Part shown: positions 30 to 17,271 of the stretch, one piece after another
How positions within the stretch are numbered: the stretch's first letter is position 1
Layout: every line of letters begins with the position of its first letter
Source: Candidatus Heimdallarchaeota archaeon
GTDB taxonomy: Archaea > Asgardarchaeota > Heimdallarchaeia > Heimdallarchaeales > DAOWED01
Reading direction: 5' to 3'
DNA: 17,688 bases
Assembly: GCA_030638685.1 (NCBI GenBank)
Contig: DAOWED010000075.1
Location: forward strand, 1 to 17,688
The notes under the pieces: generated by a model
The model's database searches: none
Seen by the model: the letters and a program-made list of their open reading frames with translations, nothing else
What the model was told of the DNA's origin: nothing
Made by a program: the position numbers and the translations under genes

Positions 30-710
30 TTGGTTTCAAAATTCAAGAAAGATTCAACACCAGATGACATGAAATTAGTAAAAGGAACAATTGGAGACTT
101 AGGAGAAGTAGTTGTCGTGATGTCAGATATTCTTGAAAGCTTCGATGTTGAGTATGAGAATGAAGTTGAAAATAAAAGAAATGCTGTCGATAAAGTATGG
201 GTAAAACTACCTAAGTTTATGCAAAGCAGACATCTTAAAGAACAAACAAGAGAAAGGGAAAGAATTAGTAAAGGGAAGAAACAATTAACCACCGTTAAAT
301 CATCATTAAGTAATATGATGACGGTGATTGAGCAATCACCAGATAATTTTGAAAAAGTAGCAGAAACATATGTTGAAGTTGTTTCACCTGCAGGAATAAC
401 TGATGAGAAGGCAGAGGAAATCGAAGAAAAGATAAATGCAATGCAGCTTGAATTTGTTCAATATATGGAAGAAATGCAGAAACAGTTACTTCTACTAAGA
501 ACAACAATGGATCATATGGCTCAAGATTTAGGAGAACATGGAGTTAAAATAGATCATATTACTGAAAAAGTAGAAGAAGTATCAACTAAGCTAGATTCTG
601 TCCAAGAAAAACTTAAGGAGATAAGTAGAAAACTTACAAAAAACAGACTTTTGATGTTTGCATTAGCAACAGGAGTAACTATAGTACTACTCAAAGCAAT
701 ACTGCCATAA
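30..710 (+). CDS. Tail-anchored coiled-coil protein with a SNARE-like (syntaxin/Qa-like) motif. It may be 5'-incomplete.
   Basis: 226-codon ORF. The C-terminal 20 aa (LLMFALATGVTIVLLKAILP, nt 648-707) form a single TM helix ending at the stop, preceded by the basic linker RKLTKNR. Upstream (nt 465-623) a 53-aa heptad stretch has hydrophobic residues at all expected 3-4 spaced positions around H170. The segment DLGEHGVKIDHITEKVE resembles syntaxin-1A LVESQGEMIDRIEYNVE as I recall it. The tracked start is TTG at 30 with no convincing SD. The frame stays open to nt 3, so the true start may lie upstream of the window. An alternative ATG is at 69. Confidence 0.6.
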   Translation: MVSKFKKDSTPDDMKLVKGTIGDLGEVVVVMSDILESFDVEYENEVENKRNAVDKVWVKLPKFMQSRHLKEQTRERERISKGKKQLTTVKSSLSNMMTVIEQSPDNFEKVAETYVEVVSPAGITDEKAEEIEEKINAMQLEFVQYMEEMQKQLLLLRTTMDHMAQDLGEHGVKIDHITEKVEEVSTKLDSVQEKLKEISRKLTKNRLLMFALATGVTIVLLKAILP

Positions 711-6422: not shown

Positions 6423-6926
6423 TCAATCTATATTTAATTCAAACACGTGATCAGCTAAACCTTTGATAGCAACTGAAAAACCGGGATCAAAACCGGCTAC
6501 AGCAACCTCTTTCCCTTTTTCCTTAAGTTTCATTATAATTGGTGAAATACGTGCATCTCTAGAACAGATTAAGGTTAAATCGGTTGTTCCTTTATGATAT
6601 TGCTCCAAAGCATGAATCCCCATAGTTAGAGAAAGATCCCCGTGTGAAACAATTGGAGTATAACCAGAGTTAACTACTGCATCCATTAAACCATTGGAAG
6701 CTTTCTGATCAAGGAAGACTTTCTTTTCAACGATGGCACCTAAGAAGTTGGCAACCTCATTAATATCCTCAAGTTTAACTCGATGTCCTTTTACTGTGCG
6801 TAATATATTAGGTCCATCTACAAAGATAACTATTTTTTTTTCTCTTTTAAATAGAGATTTTAGAGTAGTCCACCTGCTAGATAACGTAGGTGATTGATCG
6901 TCTTTTTCTAAATTCATTTTAATCAC
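6423..6926 (-). CDS. NYN / LabA-like (PIN-related nuclease fold) domain protein
   Basis: KIVIFVDGPNIL (the N-terminal Asp motif of NYN domains), SHGDLSL, and LTLICSRDARISPIIMKLKEKGKEVAVAGF...LADHVFEL match the NYN pattern (vLvSgDsDf.pl...lr..Gk.V.v.g...l...ad.f..l). The second Asp of the SgDsD block is Arg here. The tracked GTG start at 6926 overlaps the upstream gene by 8 nt. An alternative ATG at 6917 (MNLEK...) is preceded by AGTGAT and overlaps that gene's stop codon (TAAAATG). Confidence 0.7.
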   Translation of the reverse strand: MIKMNLEKDDQSPTLSSRWTTLKSLFKREKKIVIFVDGPNILRTVKGHRVKLEDINEVANFLGAIVEKKVFLDQKASNGLMDAVVNSGYTPIVSHGDLSLTMGIHALEQYHKGTTDLTLICSRDARISPIIMKLKEKGKEVAVAGFDPGFSVAIKGLADHVFELNID

Positions 6927-8865
6927 TAGTCGTTTCTGAAGCGCTTATCAAACTATCAGGAGGCGTCATTTGTTCGTTCAAACGAACTACCGTGGTATCC
7001 TCGAGAGTTTCTGTTGTCACAAAACCAAATAATTCTAATTCAGCTACTGACTTTCGGACAACAGCAGGATGCATGGTAAGCATACGAGCAATATCCTGTT
7101 CCTTTAATTCAGAACTCAGTCCGTGCAGAAGGAAAATAATCATGTATTTTTGATCATTAACAAGATAGTTTTGAAGATAGGAGCCGAGTTCTTCCAAATG
7201 AACCAATTCATTTTGGTAAGAAACGAGTTTTTGTTCTAACTCATCTTTAACCTCAACATTCATTGTAATTTTGCCTTCATATCCTGACAATTCCTCTTTT
7301 AGAGTTGTAAGTTCGGTTTCAAGAACGCTCTTTTCTTCAATCATCAGTTCATGTTTGGAAAGAGAAGAATTGAATTCATCTTGGATGGAAGTTTTTTCAG
7401 TGGAAACCGCATCATATTTTTCTTGTATTGCGTCTAATGAAGTAGTAAATTCCTCCTTTTCTTTAGCAAGAGAAGAATAGTCATTCTTTACTCGATTAAT
7501 TTCGCTTTCCGTTTCTGAGAGTGATGCCTTCAATTCGGTTAGTGAACTTTCATATTCAGCTTTTTGAGTTGTAGATTCCGACATAATGCGTTCTCTTTCA
7601 GAATCCCATTGGCTTTGAATCTTAGAAATTTCGGTTGGGAACACTTCTTCACTAACTGTTGATTCTGACTCCAAGGATTGAAGTTTTTCATGATAAATTT
7701 GATTTTGTGCATCCAAAGCAGTCTTCTCTGATTCTAATTGAGAATGGGTCTTTTCAAGTTCGGTTAATTTATTTTCCACTGAAGTTTTGACTTCTCTAAG
7801 CTCGGTTAACTCATCGTTCAATTTAGTTGTTTCTTGATCAAGATTAAGTAATCTTGTTTCTAAACCATTCTTTTCTGTAGAAACAGTTTTGTGAGCAGCT
7901 TCTAACTGAGTTAGTTTCTCATTCACTGAAATACTATCTGTTTCACTGCTCTCCATTCTTACTTTCACTTGTGAAAGCTCTAAGTTAAGAGTTCTAATCT
8001 CTTCATTCTTACTAACCATTTCATTTCTAACACTGAACTGTTCTTCCCTTGATTTTTCAAGTTCTTCTTGAAGTGATTTAAAAGCATCACTTTGCTCCTT
8101 ATACTGTTGACTGATTAATTCTCGTTCTCTATTGCTATAATCAGAAAGTTGATTCCTTAAGGTTTTTAGTTCTTCTTGTTGACGATCTATTGTTGCTTTA
8201 AAGCGGGAGATGTCATTTTGTGTATCATCAATGTGTGTCTCCCTATCACCTAAAGCTTCCTGCATCTCTTCTTGCTCAAGACGCATTTGCATCAAAGTTG
8301 CTCCAAGCTGCATATTTTGGCTTTCAAGCCTTTCAATTCCGGCTTCAAGATTAGTTATTTCTGAATTTTTGAGTCTATTTTCTTCACTCAAAGAATTCAT
8401 TTGGTCGACAAGATCCACGTTTTCAGTGGATAGATCAGAGACTGTTTCTGACTGTTCAACAAGAGAGGCTTGATATTGAGCTACTCGTGCTTCTGACAAA
8501 CTGCTTTCAACAGGAGATTGTGTTTGTAAACGTCGGAGTTCTTCTAAAAATTCAGCCTCTATAACGTTTCCTTGTGCTAGTCCTGTTTCAATTCCCTCGC
8601 GTATCTTAGAACCTGATTCTGTCTCAATTTTGAGATAAACGGTTCTTAAGAAATGTATCAAACCATCCTTAAATCGGTTTGAAATTTCAGCAATTTCAGA
8701 GGCAGGATATTGTGAAACTCCAGGAGTTAGTGAGCTTGCTCTTAATTCCTCAGCTTTAGCTCTTAACTGGTCTTCATGCAATAATCTTTGATCTCTCATA
8801 TCTTTCAAATAGTCAAGAATTACTTCTCGAATCACTGTTACTCTGATTTCTTGAAAATGTTCCAT
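6919..8865 (-). CDS. Long coiled-coil protein (648 aa) with an N-terminal helical domain and a C-terminal winged-helix (MarR/ArsR-like) domain
   Basis: Residues ~130-560 are E/K/Q/L/S/T-rich heptad sequence with recurring units, for example VNEKLTQLEAAHKTVSTEKNGLETR and VENKLTELEKTHSQLESEKTALDAQ. The C-terminus KYMIIFLLHGLSSELKEQDIARMLTMHPAVVRKSVAELELFGFVTTE..VVRL looks like a wHTH. GGTG lies 7 nt upstream of the ATG. Confidence 0.75.
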   Translation of the reverse strand: MEHFQEIRVTVIREVILDYLKDMRDQRLLHEDQLRAKAEELRASSLTPGVSQYPASEIAEISNRFKDGLIHFLRTVYLKIETESGSKIREGIETGLAQGNVIEAEFLEELRRLQTQSPVESSLSEARVAQYQASLVEQSETVSDLSTENVDLVDQMNSLSEENRLKNSEITNLEAGIERLESQNMQLGATLMQMRLEQEEMQEALGDRETHIDDTQNDISRFKATIDRQQEELKTLRNQLSDYSNRERELISQQYKEQSDAFKSLQEELEKSREEQFSVRNEMVSKNEEIRTLNLELSQVKVRMESSETDSISVNEKLTQLEAAHKTVSTEKNGLETRLLNLDQETTKLNDELTELREVKTSVENKLTELEKTHSQLESEKTALDAQNQIYHEKLQSLESESTVSEEVFPTEISKIQSQWDSERERIMSESTTQKAEYESSLTELKASLSETESEINRVKNDYSSLAKEKEEFTTSLDAIQEKYDAVSTEKTSIQDEFNSSLSKHELMIEEKSVLETELTTLKEELSGYEGKITMNVEVKDELEQKLVSYQNELVHLEELGSYLQNYLVNDQKYMIIFLLHGLSSELKEQDIARMLTMHPAVVRKSVAELELFGFVTTETLEDTTVVRLNEQMTPPDSLISASETTSD

Positions 8866-12311: not shown

Positions 12312-13997
12312 ATGGAATCATCGAATAAAAACGCCCTCAGAAAACAGATACTTATCTTCATCCTTCTTCTTGTTAATATCATAGTAAGGCTCCTTCCAAC
12401 TTTGAGTTCAAGAACTCTCTGGGGAGTGGATGCTTGGGACTATATTTATTATATTAAACAATCAATTGAGGGTTCCCAGATTATTTCTCCGGAGTTACAT
12501 GTTCCCGGTTTCTATATTCTGATGACATCCTACTGTCATATTGTTGACATCGATCCTGAAATAGCTTACCTTTTTCTTCCTCAATTAGTTCTAGGCCTTC
12601 TTACTTTAGAGATGTTCATTCTTGCAAGAGTTCTAACCAAAGATGATTCAGCTGGAATAATAGCTCTCCTTTTAACTAGTAGCGGTGGAATTTATGTTCT
12701 TAGAACAATGCTTGTTATTCCAGAATCTTTTGGTTTAAGTTTAATCCCCCTTGGTTTATGGTTATACTGGAAAATGCTTACTATTAGAACTAAAGAGTGG
12801 TCAATTTCATTTCTTATGATCGGTACTACTATTGTTTCTATGCATCATTTATCTGGAGGAGTTTTTCTATGTGCGATAAATTTCATTACTCTTTGGTTCA
12901 GTCTTAACAAGAACCATCGAAAAGATATTTGGGCAAAGGTTATCTTCTTGAACGTTGTAACGTTGATTATTTGGTCTATTACAAGCAAAAACTATCCTTT
13001 TATCGTTGCTCAAAGAGGGTCTCAGTATTTTCTAATTCTAGCACTAGTGATGATTGGTATTTCCATCATTCTTTTTTCAACTAGAGCTATGAAGCCTAGA
13101 GTAATCAAATTAATTCAGTCCGAACTCGTTCAACAATCTTGGTCTTACGTTCTATTCATAACAATTATTCTTCTTTCTTTATGGGTTGGCCTGCGAGCTG
13201 ATTTATCTTTCAAAGTTATAGCTTCATTTCTTCCTGTATCTCTTTTTATTCCCTTTACTCTTGTATGTATCCAAAAAGATTCATTTCAACTTCAACATGC
13301 TAGATCGTTTTTCCTTGGGATGATTTTTTCATATTTCATACTCTTTTCATTAATTGCCTTTAATCCATCAATACAGACACTATTAGGCAGATATGCAGAA
13401 TTCTTGATACAGATTGCTGTTCTTGGAACAGCTATGGGAGCTTCTATAAAACTGAAAGATAAGAACGGAAGGAGAAAATTATATGGATTCACTTTAGCAA
13501 TATTAATGATTACCAACTTTCCTCTTGCATATCCTGATCCCGACATTTGGATGGGTACAACTTTCAATTACTATAGTGAAGAATTAGAGGCAGCAGAATG
13601 GCTTGAAATAAGGATTGATGATCTTGGACTTGATCCAGAAATATCTATAATTGATACGGATAATCGTTTGGGAGTGATGCTTAGGGGGCACGTGGGATTA
13701 AATAGCAGTTGTGGAGAGCCAAGTGATAGCGAACTTGCTTACCTTATTCGTGAAAAACTATCTTTAATTGAAATTGCTTCATACCACTTTTCAAATCATT
13801 CTTTTATTTTCCTTTCACAAGTAATAGTGGATTCGACTTTTGCTATGGGTAAATTTGGGCATGGTCGAACTTTTTCAACAAGTGATATTGCACTTGAAGT
13901 AAGTTCCTACTTTATTTATGCCTTAAATCAACACCCTCAACTTGAAAAAGTGCTAGACTTAGGTAGCGTTTGGATATGGGAGATTAACAATAGCTGA
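12312..13997 (+). CDS. Large polytopic membrane protein with a C-terminal soluble domain, a possible GT-C-fold glycosyltransferase (PMT_2/ArnT/STT3-like architecture)
   Basis: About 12-13 hydrophobic helices are followed by a ~150-aa soluble domain. The first loop after TM1 carries the acidic/aromatic motif LWGVDAWDYIYYIKQ, reminiscent of the first-loop Asp motif of GT-C enzymes. No WWDxG motif is present, so it is not a canonical AglB/STT3. Confidence 0.4.
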   Translation: MESSNKNALRKQILIFILLLVNIIVRLLPTLSSRTLWGVDAWDYIYYIKQSIEGSQIISPELHVPGFYILMTSYCHIVDIDPEIAYLFLPQLVLGLLTLEMFILARVLTKDDSAGIIALLLTSSGGIYVLRTMLVIPESFGLSLIPLGLWLYWKMLTIRTKEWSISFLMIGTTIVSMHHLSGGVFLCAINFITLWFSLNKNHRKDIWAKVIFLNVVTLIIWSITSKNYPFIVAQRGSQYFLILALVMIGISIILFSTRAMKPRVIKLIQSELVQQSWSYVLFITIILLSLWVGLRADLSFKVIASFLPVSLFIPFTLVCIQKDSFQLQHARSFFLGMIFSYFILFSLIAFNPSIQTLLGRYAEFLIQIAVLGTAMGASIKLKDKNGRRKLYGFTLAILMITNFPLAYPDPDIWMGTTFNYYSEELEAAEWLEIRIDDLGLDPEISIIDTDNRLGVMLRGHVGLNSSCGEPSDSELAYLIREKLSLIEIASYHFSNHSFIFLSQVIVDSTFAMGKFGHGRTFSTSDIALEVSSYFIYALNQHPQLEKVLDLGSVWIWEINNS

Positions 13998-14020: not shown

Positions 14021-14644
14021 CTATTCACCTAATTCTTCCAAGATCTTAGCTAACTGAGGAGGTAATGCTTCGTTTTCTTTAAGACGTGAAAGATCGCTTA
14101 TCAAATCAATGTCATACCAACTAGCGATGCTTTCAATTTCAGTATAACGAAAATGATTCTCTTGGAATTGAGAAAGGTAGAGACTTGCTGAATGGGGTCC
14201 ATATGAAAATCTAAAAGTTGTACTAGCTCTTGCAGCAAGTATACTTGTTCCACCATCATGAGAAGGACAAATAACCGCATCATTTACTCGAAGAAGATAA
14301 TAAATAGTTGTTAGTAGTCTTGATGAAAGGTTAGGGAGGTCACCCATCACTACTATGTATTTTTCCGGATTTAATTGTTTAACGGCTTTAGAAATTGCAT
14401 TATTTAGATCAAATCCTTCATCATAGATAACTTTGAAAGAATAGTCTGTAAGTTCATCCGGTAAATTTCTATCCGCGGTAAGTAAATAGACTTCATAAGG
14501 TATAGAAAGTTCATTTATTGTATCAAATACTCGTTTCGTCATAGTTAGAACTAAACTATCTATAGATTGTGAATTACTTGGACCAGAACGTAACCTTTGC
14601 TTTGAGCTCGATGAACCACGCACAGGAACCAGTATTGTTACCAT
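14021..14644 (-). CDS. cofC: 2-phospho-L-lactate (or PEP) guanylyltransferase CofC, F420 biosynthesis
   Basis: ILVPVRGSSSSKQRL (PVK...aKsRL), DEGFDLNNAISKAV, IVVMGDLPNL, ICPSHDGGTSIL, FSYGPHSASLY and YDIDLISDL follow the CofC/FbiD conserved block order. Start ATG lies 6 nt after the upstream gene's stop. Confidence 0.8.
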   Translation of the reverse strand: MVTILVPVRGSSSSKQRLRSGPSNSQSIDSLVLTMTKRVFDTINELSIPYEVYLLTADRNLPDELTDYSFKVIYDEGFDLNNAISKAVKQLNPEKYIVVMGDLPNLSSRLLTTIYYLLRVNDAVICPSHDGGTSILAARASTTFRFSYGPHSASLYLSQFQENHFRYTEIESIASWYDIDLISDLSRLKENEALPPQLAKILEELGE

Positions 14645-14650
14645 TCTTTC

Positions 14651-15415
14651 TCACTTTAGTCTATCTTTAATCTCACTAAATAGCAGTGGATTTGAGAGAG
14701 CTGCTCTACCTATAGAAATAGCTGAGATACCTATATTTAACATTTTTAGTGCAATTCCAGTTGTGGTCACAGAATTATTACCGATTATTTTTCCTTGAAA
14801 CAAATCAGCAAAGTCTTTAAGCTTTGTAAGGTCCGCTTCTGGTTTACCGGGCAACATCGCATCTACATGAAGAATGTCAACTGAAGATAAATCATTCACG
14901 AAATCTTTTGGATTTTGGATCACTGAACTTCTGATCTTTAAAGATAAGGGAACTTTTACCCGCTTTTTATATTCATTAATGAAATCATTAAGAAATGAAA
15001 TGTTTGATAACAAGTTTTGACCAATATTAAGTTCTAAAAACTCTGGTTGTCGACAATGAGCATTTAATTCTATAAAGTCAAAAAAAGGAGAAAGGGCAGA
15101 AGCTGCTTTTGCAAAGTTTTCAGGGGAAGAAGCACGGATGTTTATACCTTTCATTACTTTCAAATTCTTAAGTTTAGAAACTTCTAACTTAACTTTTGTG
15201 AGTAAACCTTCGATTTCTTCAACTGTTCCCCACACAAATTCTTTTCTCCCTCTCTTGATTATTTGCTGTGAAGCAAGCTCTGATCGAGCATCTACACTTA
15301 TCCCACCAAGTATAACCCCTTGAGCACCTTGAAGGACTATTTTTCGGCAAAAATCACCATCAGTATATCCCGTCATTGGTGCTAGAAATAGTTGAGGAAA
15401 AGTGGTTTTATCCAT
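14651..15415 (-). CDS. Dus/DHOD-like FMN-dependent TIM-barrel oxidoreductase of unknown substrate
   Basis: LAPMTGYTDGDF (Dus: LAPMaGvTD..fR), IELNAHCRQPE (Dus/DHOD: iDlN.GCP / ElN.SCP with the catalytic Cys), SLKIR (FMN-binding Lys), LHVDAM, IGNNSV and AISIGRAALSNPLLF (Dus: MiGRgal.nPwlF). I prefer the ATG at 15415 (MDKTTF...), 1 nt after the cofD TAG (15417-15419). The tracked start at 15451 overlaps cofD by 35 nt. Confidence 0.7.
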   Translation of the reverse strand: MDKTTFPQLFLAPMTGYTDGDFCRKIVLQGAQGVILGGISVDARSELASQQIIKRGRKEFVWGTVEEIEGLLTKVKLEVSKLKNLKVMKGINIRASSPENFAKAASALSPFFDFIELNAHCRQPEFLELNIGQNLLSNISFLNDFINEYKKRVKVPLSLKIRSSVIQNPKDFVNDLSSVDILHVDAMLPGKPEADLTKLKDFADLFQGKIIGNNSVTTTGIALKMLNIGISAISIGRAALSNPLLFSEIKDRLK

Positions 15416-15416
15416 C

Positions 15417-16346
15417 CTAATCAACTGGTAAGGATAGAAGATAAGAAGCAAGTATTTCTTTAGTGACTAAACTTGTCATTAGCGTTGGAAAAGAGTAAAT
15501 ATTGAGATCATATTTTTGCTCTAGTTTATGTTTCAGTGCTTCATCAGCAACATCAATTACTAAATTTTTACAAAAAGGCTCATAATATGAAGCTACTCCA
15601 TCTGGAGAAACAGATATTCCTTGACTTTGCATAAGCTCAGCAGCTGGTCCACTTACTGGATTTGTACCAATTATCGGTGAGACTGTGATTACTTTGTGAC
15701 GATTTTTCTTCAAGTAATTGCCTATCTCTTTGATACCAATTATAGGATAGATTGAAGTTATTGGATTACTAGGGCCTATAATTATCCTTTCAGCCATTTC
15801 CAGAGCATTCAAGACCTCCTCTGTGGCTTTTGCCGTTTCCAAGCCTTTGAATAGTATTTCATCAACTAATATTTTTCCCCGATGCTTCACCCAATATTCT
15901 TGAAAGTGTATTATTCGATTTGAGCTTTTTATCCATGTTTGAATAGAATCATTTGAAGGAGGAAGTATTTTCGCTTTTATTCCAAGTTGTTTTGAAATCA
16001 TAGCTGTAAACTCAGTTGGTGAATGACCGTTCTTCAGACTATCTCCTCTAAGTATACATAATGCCAAATCTCTATCGCCAAGATTAAACCAAGGGTCCTC
16101 ATTTAATTCTCGTAGTGCTCCTATGCAATTATTGGTATCATCCTTCACTCCCCAGAATTTTTCTAAGTCTAGCCAGTCAGATAATAAATAAAGTAAAGTG
16201 TCTATGTCTGGAGACACAGGTATAGAATACCAAGAATAATCATCAGCAATGTTACCTATTATTGTTAGATCTTCTTCTTGGAGCTGTAACCTTAGACCTT
16301 GAATAAGTTTCGGGGTCCCCGTACCACCAGATAAAACAGTTATCAT
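15417..16346 (-). CDS. cofD: 2-phospho-L-lactate transferase CofD (LPPG:FO transferase), F420 biosynthesis
   Basis: MITVLSGGTGTPKLIQGL, SPDIDTLLYLLSD, LGDRD, GIKAKILPPSND, IHFQEYWV, IIGPSNPITSI.PI, VSPIIGTNPVSGPAAELM and TLMTS match methanogen CofD nearly block for block. Confidence 0.9.
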   Translation of the reverse strand: MITVLSGGTGTPKLIQGLRLQLQEEDLTIIGNIADDYSWYSIPVSPDIDTLLYLLSDWLDLEKFWGVKDDTNNCIGALRELNEDPWFNLGDRDLALCILRGDSLKNGHSPTEFTAMISKQLGIKAKILPPSNDSIQTWIKSSNRIIHFQEYWVKHRGKILVDEILFKGLETAKATEEVLNALEMAERIIIGPSNPITSIYPIIGIKEIGNYLKKNRHKVITVSPIIGTNPVSGPAAELMQSQGISVSPDGVASYYEPFCKNLVIDVADEALKHKLEQKYDLNIYSFPTLMTSLVTKEILASYLLSLPVD

Positions 16347-16378
16347 TATTACCCAGCCCAGTTACTTAGAAATTGCCT

Positions 16379-16945
16379 TTATGGAACAACTAAACGATAA
16401 ATAATAGATTCTTCAGCAAATACACTGCTTCTGACTATTCTTACAACATCTCCAGCCAACGCATGAATGGTTTTTATTGCAGGATCGTTTTCAAAAATTT
16501 TGGGTAAGTCTCTAACTCCAATGTTGTATCTTGTAGTCATTTCTTCGATTTCTTCTGAAGTTAGTATTTCATGAAGTGGAACTAAGTCATGCTTGAATAA
16601 ATCAAAAATAGGGTGAGAAGATGATAAAATTTCTATTCCTGTACTTTCAGCTTCCTTTTTAGCATAATGAGTAAATCGCCTTCTGCTTACTAATACTGCA
16701 GAACTTAATCCTTCCTTCTCGAGTTTTTCGTTTACTTCCCTTACAAAAGAAATACCTACAACTTCTTTCATAGGTATTCTAACAATCATTTTTTCAGAAG
16801 TTTTATCGGAATCAGCATAGATATCTAGTGATTTTTCGGTCTCTTCATAAGAAGTGACTGTGTAACCTCTTCTTTTAAGAATATCAGTTATACCTCTTTT
16901 GTATCTTTCAATTTCGTCTTCTGTGAGTCTTTGATTACTACTCAT
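16379..16945 (-). CDS. rpoH: RNA polymerase subunit Rpo5/H with a eukaryotic Rpb5-like N-terminal domain (full-length Rpb5 architecture)
   Basis: The C-terminal 72 aa (HDLVPLHEILTSEEIEEMTTRYNIGVRDLPKIFENDPAIKTIHALAGDVVRIVRSS...IIYRLV) are a clear RpoH/Rpb5_C domain. The N-terminal ~116 aa (nt 16598-16945) align with the human/yeast Rpb5 N-domain as I recall it: ILKRRGYTVT vs CHDRGYLVT, VVGISFVRE vs KVGIKTIKV, AVLVSRRRFTHYAKK vs ALIVVQQGMTPSAKQ, IEIL...HDLVP vs ILEQF...HELVP. GAGGAT lies 5 nt upstream of the ATG. Confidence 0.85.
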   Translation of the reverse strand: MSSNQRLTEDEIERYKRGITDILKRRGYTVTSYEETEKSLDIYADSDKTSEKMIVRIPMKEVVGISFVREVNEKLEKEGLSSAVLVSRRRFTHYAKKEAESTGIEILSSSHPIFDLFKHDLVPLHEILTSEEIEEMTTRYNIGVRDLPKIFENDPAIKTIHALAGDVVRIVRSSVFAEESIIYRLVVP

Positions 16946-17271
16946 TTGCTATCCTCATATTGGGTTTTCAATATCAATTTAATAAGCTATTGTATCATTG
17001 ACTTGTAAAGATTCAATTTACGCTTTTCGCTTTGATTACATAAATTTCTGTTGTGAGAGATTATGCATAATTTACTAAAACTTGAGCATTTAGTAGACTA
17101 TGATACTTTGTGTTTAACTAGATTGCTTAACCTCGTCTTACTTCACAGAAGAAGCCTTCATCATAGCACGTTAACAAACAAATGTGTCAAGTTAATTAGT
17201 GGTAAGTTAAATATAATCTAGCGAAACAATAAAAAAGTAACCTTTTTATTACTCCTTAGGAGAATAAATCT

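Follow-up and report, generated by a model that had tools for sequence, protein, structure and literature searches.

The jaw domain at the N-terminal end of Rpb5 lines the lower jaw of eukaryotic RNA polymerases and touches downstream duplex DNA via its TPSA motif. This domain is called eukaryote-specific and absent from archaeal subunit H (PMC6690254, PMC3906176, PMC10881513, PMC3424549), as the preliminary description of the DNA studied here had also held, and searches of the openly accessible literature and its supplements turned up no account of an archaeal subunit H with such an extension. A gene in the window (the whole stretch of heimdallarchaeal DNA that was analysed, 17,688 nt) raises the question of where the jaw came from, as its product joins a subunit H domain to an N-terminal domain that resembles the jaw of Rpb5 (Table 1). 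We consider it probable that this gene encodes a two-domain Rpo5, in which the N-terminal domain is a disarmed Mrr-type domain that serves structurally and is homologous to the Rpb5 jaw.

Table 1. Features of the long-form rpoH locus, in positions of the window.
Feature	Position	Strand	Basis or remark
Long-form rpoH/rpo5 gene	16379..16945	-	188 aa, stop codon included; ATG start
N-terminal domain, residues 1-113: nuclease-dead Mrr-type PD-(D/E)XK fold, Rpb5-jaw-like	16607..16945	-	Pfam, model, HHalign
D41, retained first acidic residue of the nuclease motif	16823..16825	-	Translation; aligned with D of GIDIIA in Mrr P0175
R56-I57-P58 in place of catalytic (E/Q)xK, dead active site	16772..16780	-	Translation; HHalign
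T92-H-Y-A-K-K-E-A99, conserved loop and helix start aligned with Rpb5 TPSA	16649..16672	-	Translation; HHalign to TPSAMK
Rpb5_C / subunit H assembly domain, residues 114-186	16388..16606	-	Pfam PF01191, NF007129, structure superposition
Shine-Dalgarno-like GAGGA	16952..16956	-	6 nt before ATG; read from sequence
TATA-box-like TTATTAAA (putative)	16978..16985	-	Read from sequence; possible archaeal promoter
cofD-family gene	15417..16346	-	32 nt downstream of rpoH; L001 counterpart 88% identical, with PF01933
Dus-like TIM-barrel gene	14651..15451	-	Overlaps cofD by 35 nt; Pfam Dus 45.4 bits; syntenic in L001, L006, L007
cofC-family gene, last of the conserved four-gene run	14021..14644	-	L001 counterpart 89% identical, with PF01983 CofC

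The C-terminal part belongs to a familiar family. The Pfam profile RNA_pol_Rpb5_C is matched over its entire length (positions 1-73 of 73; 80.9 bits against a cut-off of 23.5, E 5.7e-23), and the NCBIfam equivalog for RpoH, on which long forms from Heimdall, Hod and Bathy reach 94-98 bits, is passed narrowly (88.2 bits against a cut-off of 83). The best single match among PDB sequences is subunit H of M. jannaschii (E 1e-18), to which the domain is 56% identical, and the modelled domain superposes on solved archaeal subunit H structures with an rmsd of 1.5-2.0 over ~70 residues. The signatures HDLVPLH and YRLV are present; the S-x-T-A-G turn reads SSVFAEES, a degeneration found in the lineage of the 188-aa protein, and the canonical SPTAG is retained in most Heimdallarchaeia long forms. 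An RpoH/Rpb5 C-domain had been placed at residues 117-188, and that assignment holds.

The assignment of the N-terminal domain is less direct. In the AlphaFold2 model of the full-length product (pLDDT 83.5), residues 9-107 follow the order alpha-beta-beta-beta-alpha-beta-alpha-beta, and the domain modelled alone has a pLDDT of 83.2. Its top Pfam score is to NA-iREase1 (PF22722; 37.1 bits against a cut-off of 27, residues 19-102), and Mrr_cat (PF04471) is also reached (33.1 bits against 21, residues 16-108); Rpb5_N (PF03871) is not, with 13.6 bits (E 0.11) against a cut-off of 27 over residues 14-46 only, and the best relatives score 16.6-17.8 bits on it. In Foldseek searches of the PDB, eukaryotic Rpb5 provides the 36 top matches of the full-length model, covering both domains with E down to 5.6e-15 (TM about 0.65 over ~200 columns), and the first matches of the N-domain-only model are Rpb5 N-domains (E 4.1e-5, TM 0.74, rmsd 2.9), followed by the Mrr-like protein AF1548 (TM 0.61) and MspJI (TM 0.53); the comparison with eukaryotic Rpb5 that had been proposed as a check comes out in favour of the likeness. 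At the sequence level, phmmer aligns query residues 42-186 with residues 61-209 of human RPB5 (E 1e-16), and phmmer and HHalign place four Rpb5 counterparts in order (RRGYTVT/DRGYFIT, VVGISFVRE/SVGIKTMKN, AVLVSRRRFTHYAKK/GIFVYQNGVTPSAMK and IEIL/IETF), bearing out the ordered alignment of the preliminary description. The domain has 113 residues against ~140 in Rpb5, and the ~35-residue helical insertion of eukaryotic Rpb5, between helix 1 and the sheet, is absent from the archaeal sequences, where HHalign opens a gap. These results support an N-terminal domain that occupies the position of the Rpb5 jaw domain and has its fold, one that is Rpb5-N-like and no textbook Rpb5_N. From the original reading as a eukaryote-like full-length Rpb5 we keep the two-domain layout, the place of the N-domain and the fold; of the two families expected from the profile search, PF01191 was found and PF03871 fell below its cut-off.

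As a nuclease the domain is dead. The first acidic residue of the motif is kept (the reference for its alignment, P0175, is a bona fide Mrr protein), and of 71 long forms 48 have D and 7 have E there. The catalytic (E/Q)xK has gone: HHalign sets VRIP opposite VQCK or IQAK of true Mrr, none of the 71 long forms has the catalytic E/Q at 56 or K at 58, and all 14 true Mrr sequences carry (Q/E)-x-K. An ordinary Mrr-type nuclease with intact catalytic residues had been named as the finding that would tell against an Rpb5-like reading; the objection holds by half only, as the family match is there and the catalytic (E/Q)xK is not. Strong conservation is seen elsewhere in the domain. The TPSA motif of Rpb5 is reported to contact downstream DNA (PMC6690254), and the archaeal T-H-Y-A-K-K aligned with it has a conserved T and A and then two basic residues (T in 68, A in 65, K/R in 67 and K/R in 56 of the 71).

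The relationship among the archaeal domain, Rpb5_N and the Mrr nucleases is best seen in comparisons of diverse profiles, made with HHalign from 71 archaeal and 100 Rpb5 N-domains; the eukaryotic profile came from a search with eukaryotic Rpb5 N-domains whose best 120 matches are animal and fungal Rpb5 only. The archaeal profile matches Rpb5_N with a probability of 96.8-97.5% (E 3e-10 to 8e-12, score 61-69, 98-100 columns), against scores of 11-14 and probabilities below 1% for reversed-profile controls, and matches true Mrr with a probability of 99.5% (score 123, E 1e-22). Compared directly, Rpb5_N and true Mrr give 76%, with a score of 35 over 41 columns. Because the archaeal domain is strongly linked to both families and their own link is weak, it forms a sequence bridge between them, and the earlier suggestion of an intermediate in RNA polymerase subunit evolution fits these profiles. 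The link to Rpb5_N depends on profile depth: when the profiles are shallow (21 sequences from Kari and Bathy, 4 from eukaryotes) it falls to 17.6%, and by subgroup it ranges over 18-97% (Heimdall A alone 33%, Heimdall B 62%, Bathy 18%). For every archaeal subgroup true Mrr nucleases are nearer than Rpb5_N. Searched against PDB sequences, the N-domain profile gives nine weak matches, of which the top seven are Rpb5 (best E 0.007) and the other two unrelated proteins, with no Mrr-type nuclease among the nine.

Such values could also arise from two separate events, in which an REase-fold domain was fused to subunit H once in archaea and once on the eukaryotic stem, the likeness then reflecting superfamily membership and no ancestry. 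That the archaeal domain scores far nearer to Mrr_cat than to Rpb5_N would agree with such a history, as would the unreached Pfam Rpb5_N cut-off, the missing eukaryotic insertion and the weak links of the Heimdallarchaeia subgroups taken alone; moreover, the same dead domain is present without Rpb5_C in other proteins and is for this reason regarded as mobile. Against it, archaeal and eukaryotic proteins agree in fusion partner, domain order and hinge (F-D/N-x-F-x-H-x-L-V-P-x-H), and each N-domain is catalytically dead. Rpb5_N, furthermore, links to the archaeal Rpo5 N-domain along its whole length and to free Mrr over a part of it, the N-domain modelled alone finds its best structural neighbours in Rpb5, and the long form occurs in the group that Eme et al. 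(2023) place nearest to eukaryotes, Heimdallarchaeia and Hodarchaeales. We therefore regard independent fusion as unlikely, and lean somewhat towards a jaw that arose in archaea, by fusion of a disarmed Mrr domain to subunit H, and was inherited by eukaryotes from a Heimdallarchaeia-related ancestor.

The two-domain form is no peculiarity of one genome. A scan with an N-domain pattern, which returns long forms only, detected the architecture in the genomes of 33 species, almost all of which bear an Asgard (Heimdall or Hod) label, and the two-domain proteins of Hodarchaeales are named subunit H by NCBI. Several hundred further two-domain proteins are of a 182-aa type, and those with names are labelled Bathyarchaeota, Bathyarchaeia or Thermoproteota. 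In loci of this type (L002, L003, L004 and L041) the long rpoH directly follows an Rpo12/RpoP gene, identified by matches below the family cut-offs (PDB E 7e-8, NCBIfam RpoP E 1e-10).

In non-Asgard archaea rpoH typically stands at the head of rpoH-rpoB-rpoA. The gene studied here does not head such a cluster, as the preliminary description had observed, and lies upstream of cofD across the described gap of 32 nt (16347-16378). No rpoB or rpoA motif was seen within 6-10 kb in L001-L040 or in the gene table of L041, 41 related loci in all. The order rpoH, cofD, dus-like gene and cofC recurs in three loci, L001 and the Hodarchaeales-type L006 and L007; synteny of rpoH and cofD across all Heimdallarchaeia was rejected, the pairing being confined to Kariarchaeaceae and a single group of Hodarchaeales type. 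The window contains no restriction-modification or defence context, and neither the window nor the syntenic locus L001 has a NACHT or NTPase gene.

This neighbourhood had been taken as a hint that the gene is a repurposed paralogue. In such a second copy Rpb5_C would tether a DNA-binding dead module to the polymerase, or act elsewhere in regulation or defence, a short rpoH doing the normal job. The lack of linkage to rpoB and rpoA in all 41 loci might be cited for it, together with the degenerate TAG turn and narrow equivalog pass of the 188-aa protein, an N-domain whose top Pfam family was described from conflict systems, and variants with 2-3 tandem dead-nuclease domains (P0133, P0134, P0142). 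The conserved Asgard core of RNA polymerase and ribosomal genes, however, consists of rpoA1-rpoA2-L30e-nusA-S12 and leaves rpoH outside (PMC10833476). Among Asgard archaea it looks normal for rpoH to lie apart from rpoB, and for this reason the distance is no evidence of repurposing, so that we drop the hint. Nor has the short gene come to light: L001-L040, the loci scanned for it (L041 being outside the scan), hold one RpoH-like gene each, and no close relative of short length came out of a full-length search of 5.8 billion proteins, within the limits that the word index sets to the method. In Heimdallarchaeia the long forms mostly have SPTAG and reach 94-95 bits with the RpoH equivalog, the 182-aa form sits in an rpoP-rpoH pair, and NCBI names the long forms subunit H. 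On the loci and sequences covered here, a repurposed paralogue seems very unlikely.

The reading frame has been kept uninterrupted across both domains in five proteins of 84-100% identity and in several hundred more distant ones; four of the relatives, at 84-90% identity, carry it as a single ORF, every one on a separate contig. Because the same two-domain ORF is conserved across close and distant proteins, chance and a frameshift or assembly artefact joining two genes are rejected. The intergenic region upstream of rpoH is 326 nt long and contains the TATA-like TTATTAAA, and the Shine-Dalgarno-like site, as read from the sequence, supports the long start of the ORF. Hardly any credence can be given to an active Mrr-type nuclease fused to RpoH or to an artefactual joining of two genes: Mrr_cat is above its cut-off and D41 is retained, but (E/Q)xK is absent from 71 of 71 long forms and replaced by R-x-P here, on which ground an active Mrr-type nuclease is rejected, the single ORF recurs among close and distant relatives, the two-domain model is confident, and annotation is seen to err in the opposite direction, some GenBank records shortening the 182-aa ORF to its last 81 residues.

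We return to a two-domain Rpo5 with a disarmed jaw-like domain. Under this reading a former Mrr-type restriction-endonuclease domain would have lost its catalytic (E/Q)xK and become a structural module, homologous to the Rpb5 jaw and bearing T-H-Y-A-K-K in place of the TPSA loop. The C-terminal domain is the universal assembly domain, which docks on the largest subunit. The long form would then be the cell's working subunit H, its N-terminal domain would sit at the jaw and contact DNA or factors, and the eukaryotic jaw domain would descend from the archaeal fusion, making long-form Rpo5 the probable archaeal precursor of the Rpb5 jaw. If true, long-form Rpo5 would join the "eukaryotic signature" components of the core transcription machinery, among which it has not been listed before. 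Reviews and structural work published up to 2024 put the Rpb5 jaw in eukaryotes only, and a conserved two-domain Rpo5 would move its origin into archaea, give it a concrete source in a disarmed restriction enzyme, and supply the debate over the closest archaeal relatives of eukaryotes with a character from the transcription machinery. What the jaw domain does becomes testable in a simpler system with a single polymerase, and an annotation problem is flagged, as the last 81 residues alone are called in some records of the 182-aa gene.

Among known systems, canonical archaeal subunit H or Rpo5 (about 75-85 aa; 1hmj, 4qiw_H, 2waq_H) is of the same family as the C-terminal 73 residues, and differs from the long form, which begins with a folded domain of 113 additional residues, has no rpoB downstream and, in the lineage studied here, shows a degenerate S-x-T-A-G turn. 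Mrr_cat and the Mrr-like AF1548 (PDB 1y88) share with the N-terminal domain the fold, clear sequence homology and the first Asp; unlike them, the domain described here has lost (E/Q)xK (R56, P58) and is joined to a domain of an RNA polymerase subunit. NA-iREase1, the NACHT-associated inactive restriction endonuclease, is likewise an inactive REase domain, whereas ours has no NACHT or NTPase partner and is fused to Rpb5_C. Rpo13 of Sulfolobales adjoins the N-terminal end of Rpo5 and contacts double-stranded DNA (PMC13257274). It is an archaeal addition in the region predicted for the long-form N-domain, and a functional analogue only, being an unrelated small helical protein with its own separate gene. 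Viral Rpb5 homologues (ASFV D205R/vRPB5 and vaccinia Rpo22) are subunits of the two-domain kind that lie outside eukaryotic cells, align with the model in Foldseek over ~207-212 columns (E 8e-12 to 2e-5), and are more distant, at 13-16% identity; they are taken as derived from eukaryotic Rpb5. Eukaryotic Rpb5 itself (RPABC1/ABC27, shared by Pol I, II and III) is longer (~210-215 aa against 188 aa), includes the insertion after helix 1, reads TPSA where the archaeal protein has THYAKK, and lies further from Mrr_cat than the archaeal sequence does, whose source is an archaeon that has just one RNA polymerase. In both, an REase-fold N-domain without the nuclease catalytic residues is followed, across the same hinge, by Rpb5_C, and the two share an RGY closing helix 1, a VG[IV] turn, the T-x-x-A of TPSA and IE-x-F/L.

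The long-form subunit H, in which an N-domain (residues 1-113) precedes Rpb5_C, combines the assembly domain of subunit H with a folded Mrr-type domain, nuclease-dead by its motif, that has the position and the fold of the Rpb5 jaw. Its gene, rpoH, is one uninterrupted ORF, with GAGGA 6 nt upstream of the ATG and a TATA-like TTATTAAA approximately 35 nt upstream, both read from the sequence. Residues 114-186 of the product are unambiguously an Rpb5_C/subunit H domain (Pfam E 5.7e-23); the product scores 88.2 bits against the NCBIfam RpoH equivalog (cut-off 83), and its top single PDB sequence match is subunit H of M. jannaschii. Its stop codon and the start of the next gene, of the CofD family, are 32 nt apart; a Dus-like and then a CofC-family gene come after, an order common to Kariarchaeaceae and one Hodarchaeales-type group and absent from the other Heimdallarchaeia examined. 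A preliminary description had stated the ORF, the subunit H domain, an N-terminal extension and the CofD-family neighbour at 32 nt, and all of these facts were confirmed. The closest named relative of the product (90% identity) is encoded on a syntenic 68-kb contig annotated 'Candidatus Kariarchaeaceae archaeon'; Kariarchaeaceae are a family within Heimdallarchaeia, Asgard archaea (Eme et al. 2023).

The N-terminal 113 residues adopt a confident fold in AlphaFold2 models (pLDDT ~83 both in the full protein and alone), with the order alpha-beta-beta-beta-alpha-beta-alpha-beta of the PD-(D/E)XK restriction-endonuclease core. With 37.1 bits for NA-iREase1 and 33.1 bits for Mrr_cat they pass both Pfam thresholds, and they fall below that of Rpb5_N (13.6 bits vs 27). 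Despite this Pfam assignment, several independent comparisons tie the domain to the Rpb5 jaw. By phmmer against the PDB, human RPB5 aligned colinearly from query residue 42 to the C-terminus. When an N-domain-only profile was run against all PDB sequences, Rpb5 supplied the top seven of nine weak matches (best E 0.007); the remaining two were unrelated proteins, and no Mrr-type nuclease was among the nine. In structure searches, the full-length model matched 36 Rpb5 chains over ~200 columns (E down to 5.6e-15, TM ~0.65) and archaeal H subunits over the last ~70 residues only, and the isolated N-domain model found Rpb5 first (E 4.1e-5, TM 0.74, rmsd 2.9), with Mrr-like AF1548 (TM 0.61) and MspJI (TM 0.53) close behind. 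Eukaryotic Rpb5 differs by a ~35-residue insertion that the archaeal long form lacks. The eukaryote-type N-domain proposed in the preliminary description is therefore upheld as a Rpb5 jaw fold linked to Rpb5 by profile and structure, but formally the domain is an inactivated Mrr-type domain and no member of Pfam Rpb5_N.

In profile-profile comparison, 71 archaeal N-domains matched 100 Rpb5 N-domains with a probability of 96.8-97.5% (E 3e-10 to 8e-12, score 61-69, 98-100 columns), a link that ranged from 18% to 97% when taken by subgroup and dropped to 17.6% with shallow profiles (21 Kariarchaeaceae and Bathyarchaeota/Bathyarchaeia sequences vs 4 eukaryotes). The archaeal domains matched 14 true Mrr nucleases at 99.5% (E 1e-22, score 123, 97 columns), and Rpb5 N-domains matched the true Mrr nucleases directly at 76% (E 2.3e-5, score 35, 41 columns); reversed-profile controls scored 11-14, with probability <1%. 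At the level of sequence profiles, the archaeal domain therefore bridges Mrr nucleases and Rpb5_N, which is highly diverged.

True Mrr proteins carry the motif G-x-D ... (Q/E)-x-K. The N-domain of the window protein keeps D41, and the (E/Q)xK positions are taken by R56 and P58. In a set of 71 diverse long forms, the residue at position 56 varies among R, H, W, Y, F and S, with E or Q in none (0/71), and K is found at position 58 in none (0/71). Judged by these residues the nuclease is dead, disarmed just as Rpb5 is in human (FVFFP) and yeast (WVEFC), so the domain is not the ordinary, catalytically intact Mrr nuclease that the preliminary description had considered as a competing identity. The top-conserved surface element, T92-H-Y-A-K-K-E-A (T in 68/71, A in 65/71, two basic residues after), aligns with the TPSA loop of Rpb5, which is that jaw's contact with downstream DNA (PMC6690254).

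Long-form subunit H is a family and no single-genome oddity. The N-domain-only profile retrieved 383 proteins from a 5.8-billion-sequence collection; nearly all of the best 120 are 182 aa long with Rpb5_C at the C-terminus, and the named proteins among these are labelled subunit H, from Bathyarchaeota or Thermoproteota. When 1.84 billion representatives were searched exhaustively with HMMER, 98 clusters were obtained, with Rpb5_C after the dead-nuclease domain in approximately 35; Hodarchaeales and Bathyarchaeia are among the named long-form members. With one genome taken per species, the N-domain motif [RKA][FYL]THY[AT][KR][KR]EA yielded 33 loci, nearly all labelled Heimdallarchaeota, Hodarchaeota or Promethearchaeota (three on chromosome records of 1.4-4.9 Mb), each matching the query from residues 1-18 to 187-188.

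Some variants have the dead-nuclease domain in two or three tandem copies, and others have acidic tails. P0133 (378 aa), P0134 (481 aa) and P0142 (436 aa), named 'RpoH/Rpb5 C-terminal domain-containing protein' by NCBI, carry 2-3 tandem dead restriction-endonuclease domains, lysine-rich linkers and then Rpb5_C; P0130, P0135, P0149 and a protein of locus L039 end in acidic or lysine-rich low-complexity tails of 50-100 residues. In P0008 (142 aa, 66-kb contig) a SAP-like helix-extension-helix segment before Rpb5_C (SAP_new25 and SAP matches sub-threshold) replaces the nuclease-fold domain. The dead (R-for-Q) domain is also found without Rpb5_C in proteins of 190-283 aa (P0168, P0170, P0172, P0176-P0178, P0180, P0181, P0183, P0200), which may represent stand-alone relatives of the fused domain or its origin; P0176 and P0177 show weak zinc-ribbon matches (TFIIB-type, Lar-like).

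That the long form is a paralogue rather than the polymerase's own subunit H would accord with the degenerate S-x-T-A-G turn (SSVFAEES) in the C-domain of the window protein's lineage. Against this, long forms pass the RpoH equivalog, a single RpoH-like gene was present per locus in 40/40 loci scanned, and a full-length search of 5.8 billion proteins returned no short close relative. Furthermore, at four loci of the 182-aa type, long rpoH begins 0-5 nt after a small zinc-ribbon gene ends, and that gene matches whole S. acidocaldarius Rpo12 (PDB E 7e-8) and NCBIfam RpoP (E 1e-10, below family cut-offs). By these matches the gene is identified as Rpo12/RpoP; its product is extended by ~15 residues at the N-terminus relative to solved Rpo12. 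Such an rpoP-rpoH pair is expected of a real polymerase subunit and counts in favour of the long form being one. Since the turn is degenerate and the copy counts are at the level of loci, a paralogue retains a small probability. The preliminary description also took the gene's non-canonical position as a possible sign of repurposing, which is not borne out: rpoB or rpoA lay near long rpoH in 0/41 loci, and the core conserved in Asgard genomes, rpoA1-rpoA2-L30e-nusA-S12, does not include rpoH-rpoB (PMC10833476). In Helarchaeota and Thorarchaeota, the Rpo5 accession numbers quoted in figure legends are far from those of Rpo1 (PMC13257274). Separation of rpoH from rpoB thus seems to be the Asgard norm, as gauged from accession numbers in the latter two groups.

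Public annotation conceals the N-domain where gene calls are truncated. In the Bathyarchaeota MAG contig MEZF01000058.1 (L041), the GenBank call covers just the C-terminal 81 residues (OGD57471.1), although the 182-aa ORF is intact, and P0248 belongs here too; annotation may be part of the reason that the long form went undescribed. In Bathyarchaeia GCA_046761185.1 (L005), rpoH is called as two products, probably because its N-domain contains a frameshift or sequencing error, as 90%-identical relatives have 189 aa.

The window's other genes are ordinary archaeal housekeeping genes. The Dus-like gene, wedged between cofD and cofC from Kariarchaeaceae to the Hodarchaeales-type group, may act in F420-related synthesis as a partner not recognised so far. 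SNARE-like proteins are reported from Heimdallarchaeota, and the 226-aa ORF may be one of them: residues 174-219 give a sub-threshold Pfam SNARE-domain match (23 bits; cut-off 26.8), with coiled-coil-type matches as well. Two large ORFs without a Pfam match have conserved counterparts in L001, the syntenic Kariarchaeaceae contig. A gene with faint IFT52-GIFT and OST48-N-like matches adjoins long rpoH in two different Heimdallarchaeia groups.

Coordinates of rpoH and other genes in the window and in related loci (L-numbers)
Feature	Locus	Position (strand)	Remarks
rpoH, long form	window	16379-16945 (-)	188 aa
Dus-like TIM-barrel gene	window	14651-15451 (-)	weak Pfam Dus match; 35-nt overlap with cofD
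Dus-like gene	L006	11564-12337	
Dus-like gene	L007	3500-4240	
ORF with SNARE-domain match	window	30-710 (+)	226 aa
ORF, no Pfam match	window	6919-8865 (-)	648 aa
NYN-domain gene	window	6423-6926	8-nt overlap with 648-aa gene
ORF, no Pfam match	window	12312-13997 (+)	561 aa
Gene adjoining long rpoH	L009	6681-7973	~430-480 aa
Gene adjoining long rpoH	L006	8140-9576	~430-480 aa
Gene adjoining long rpoH	L007	43-1458	~430-480 aa
Zinc-ribbon gene	L002	9815-10000	61-66 aa
Zinc-ribbon gene	L003	325-507	61-66 aa
Zinc-ribbon gene	L004	9811-9999	61-66 aa
Zinc-ribbon gene	L041	5492-5692	61-66 aa
rpoH, truncated call	L041	5698-6246	182 aa
rpoH, split call	L005	5347-6112	72-aa + 91-aa
rpoH, tailed long form	L039	787-1371	

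RNA polymerase subunit H/Rpb5 is already known; the two-domain archaeal variant is undescribed in the literature searched, that outside subscription journals. A 2012 survey of the PD-(D/E)XK superfamily places Rpb5_N under 'Eukaryota' only, and papers of 2014, 2018 and 2024 give archaeal RpoH without the N-domain or the jaw as eukaryote-specific (PMC6690254, PMC3906176, PMC10881513, PMC3424549). Eme et al. (2023) make no mention of a long-form subunit H, and an analysis from 2026 of the small subunits of archaeal RNAP treats Rpo6 and Rpo8 without discussing the feature (PMC13257274). The interpretation in the preliminary description is thus supported in part: the protein is a two-domain subunit H of full length that resembles Rpb5, and that the long form is an evolutionary intermediate is plausible, but the N-domain is formally an inactivated Mrr-type domain and not a Pfam Rpb5_N member.

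The C-domain would dock on Rpo1, as it does in every archaeal and eukaryotic polymerase structure solved, and the N-domain would then lengthen the lower jaw alongside the channel for downstream DNA, with a conserved basic loop in the place of the DNA contact of Rpb5. So placed, it could make open and elongating complexes more stable and give factors a surface to dock on. The Rpo13 of Sulfolobales, which is unrelated to the long-form N-domain, occupies the neighbouring region and binds DNA (PMC13257274); this suggests, by analogy, that different lineages may have filled the jaw-side site in different ways.
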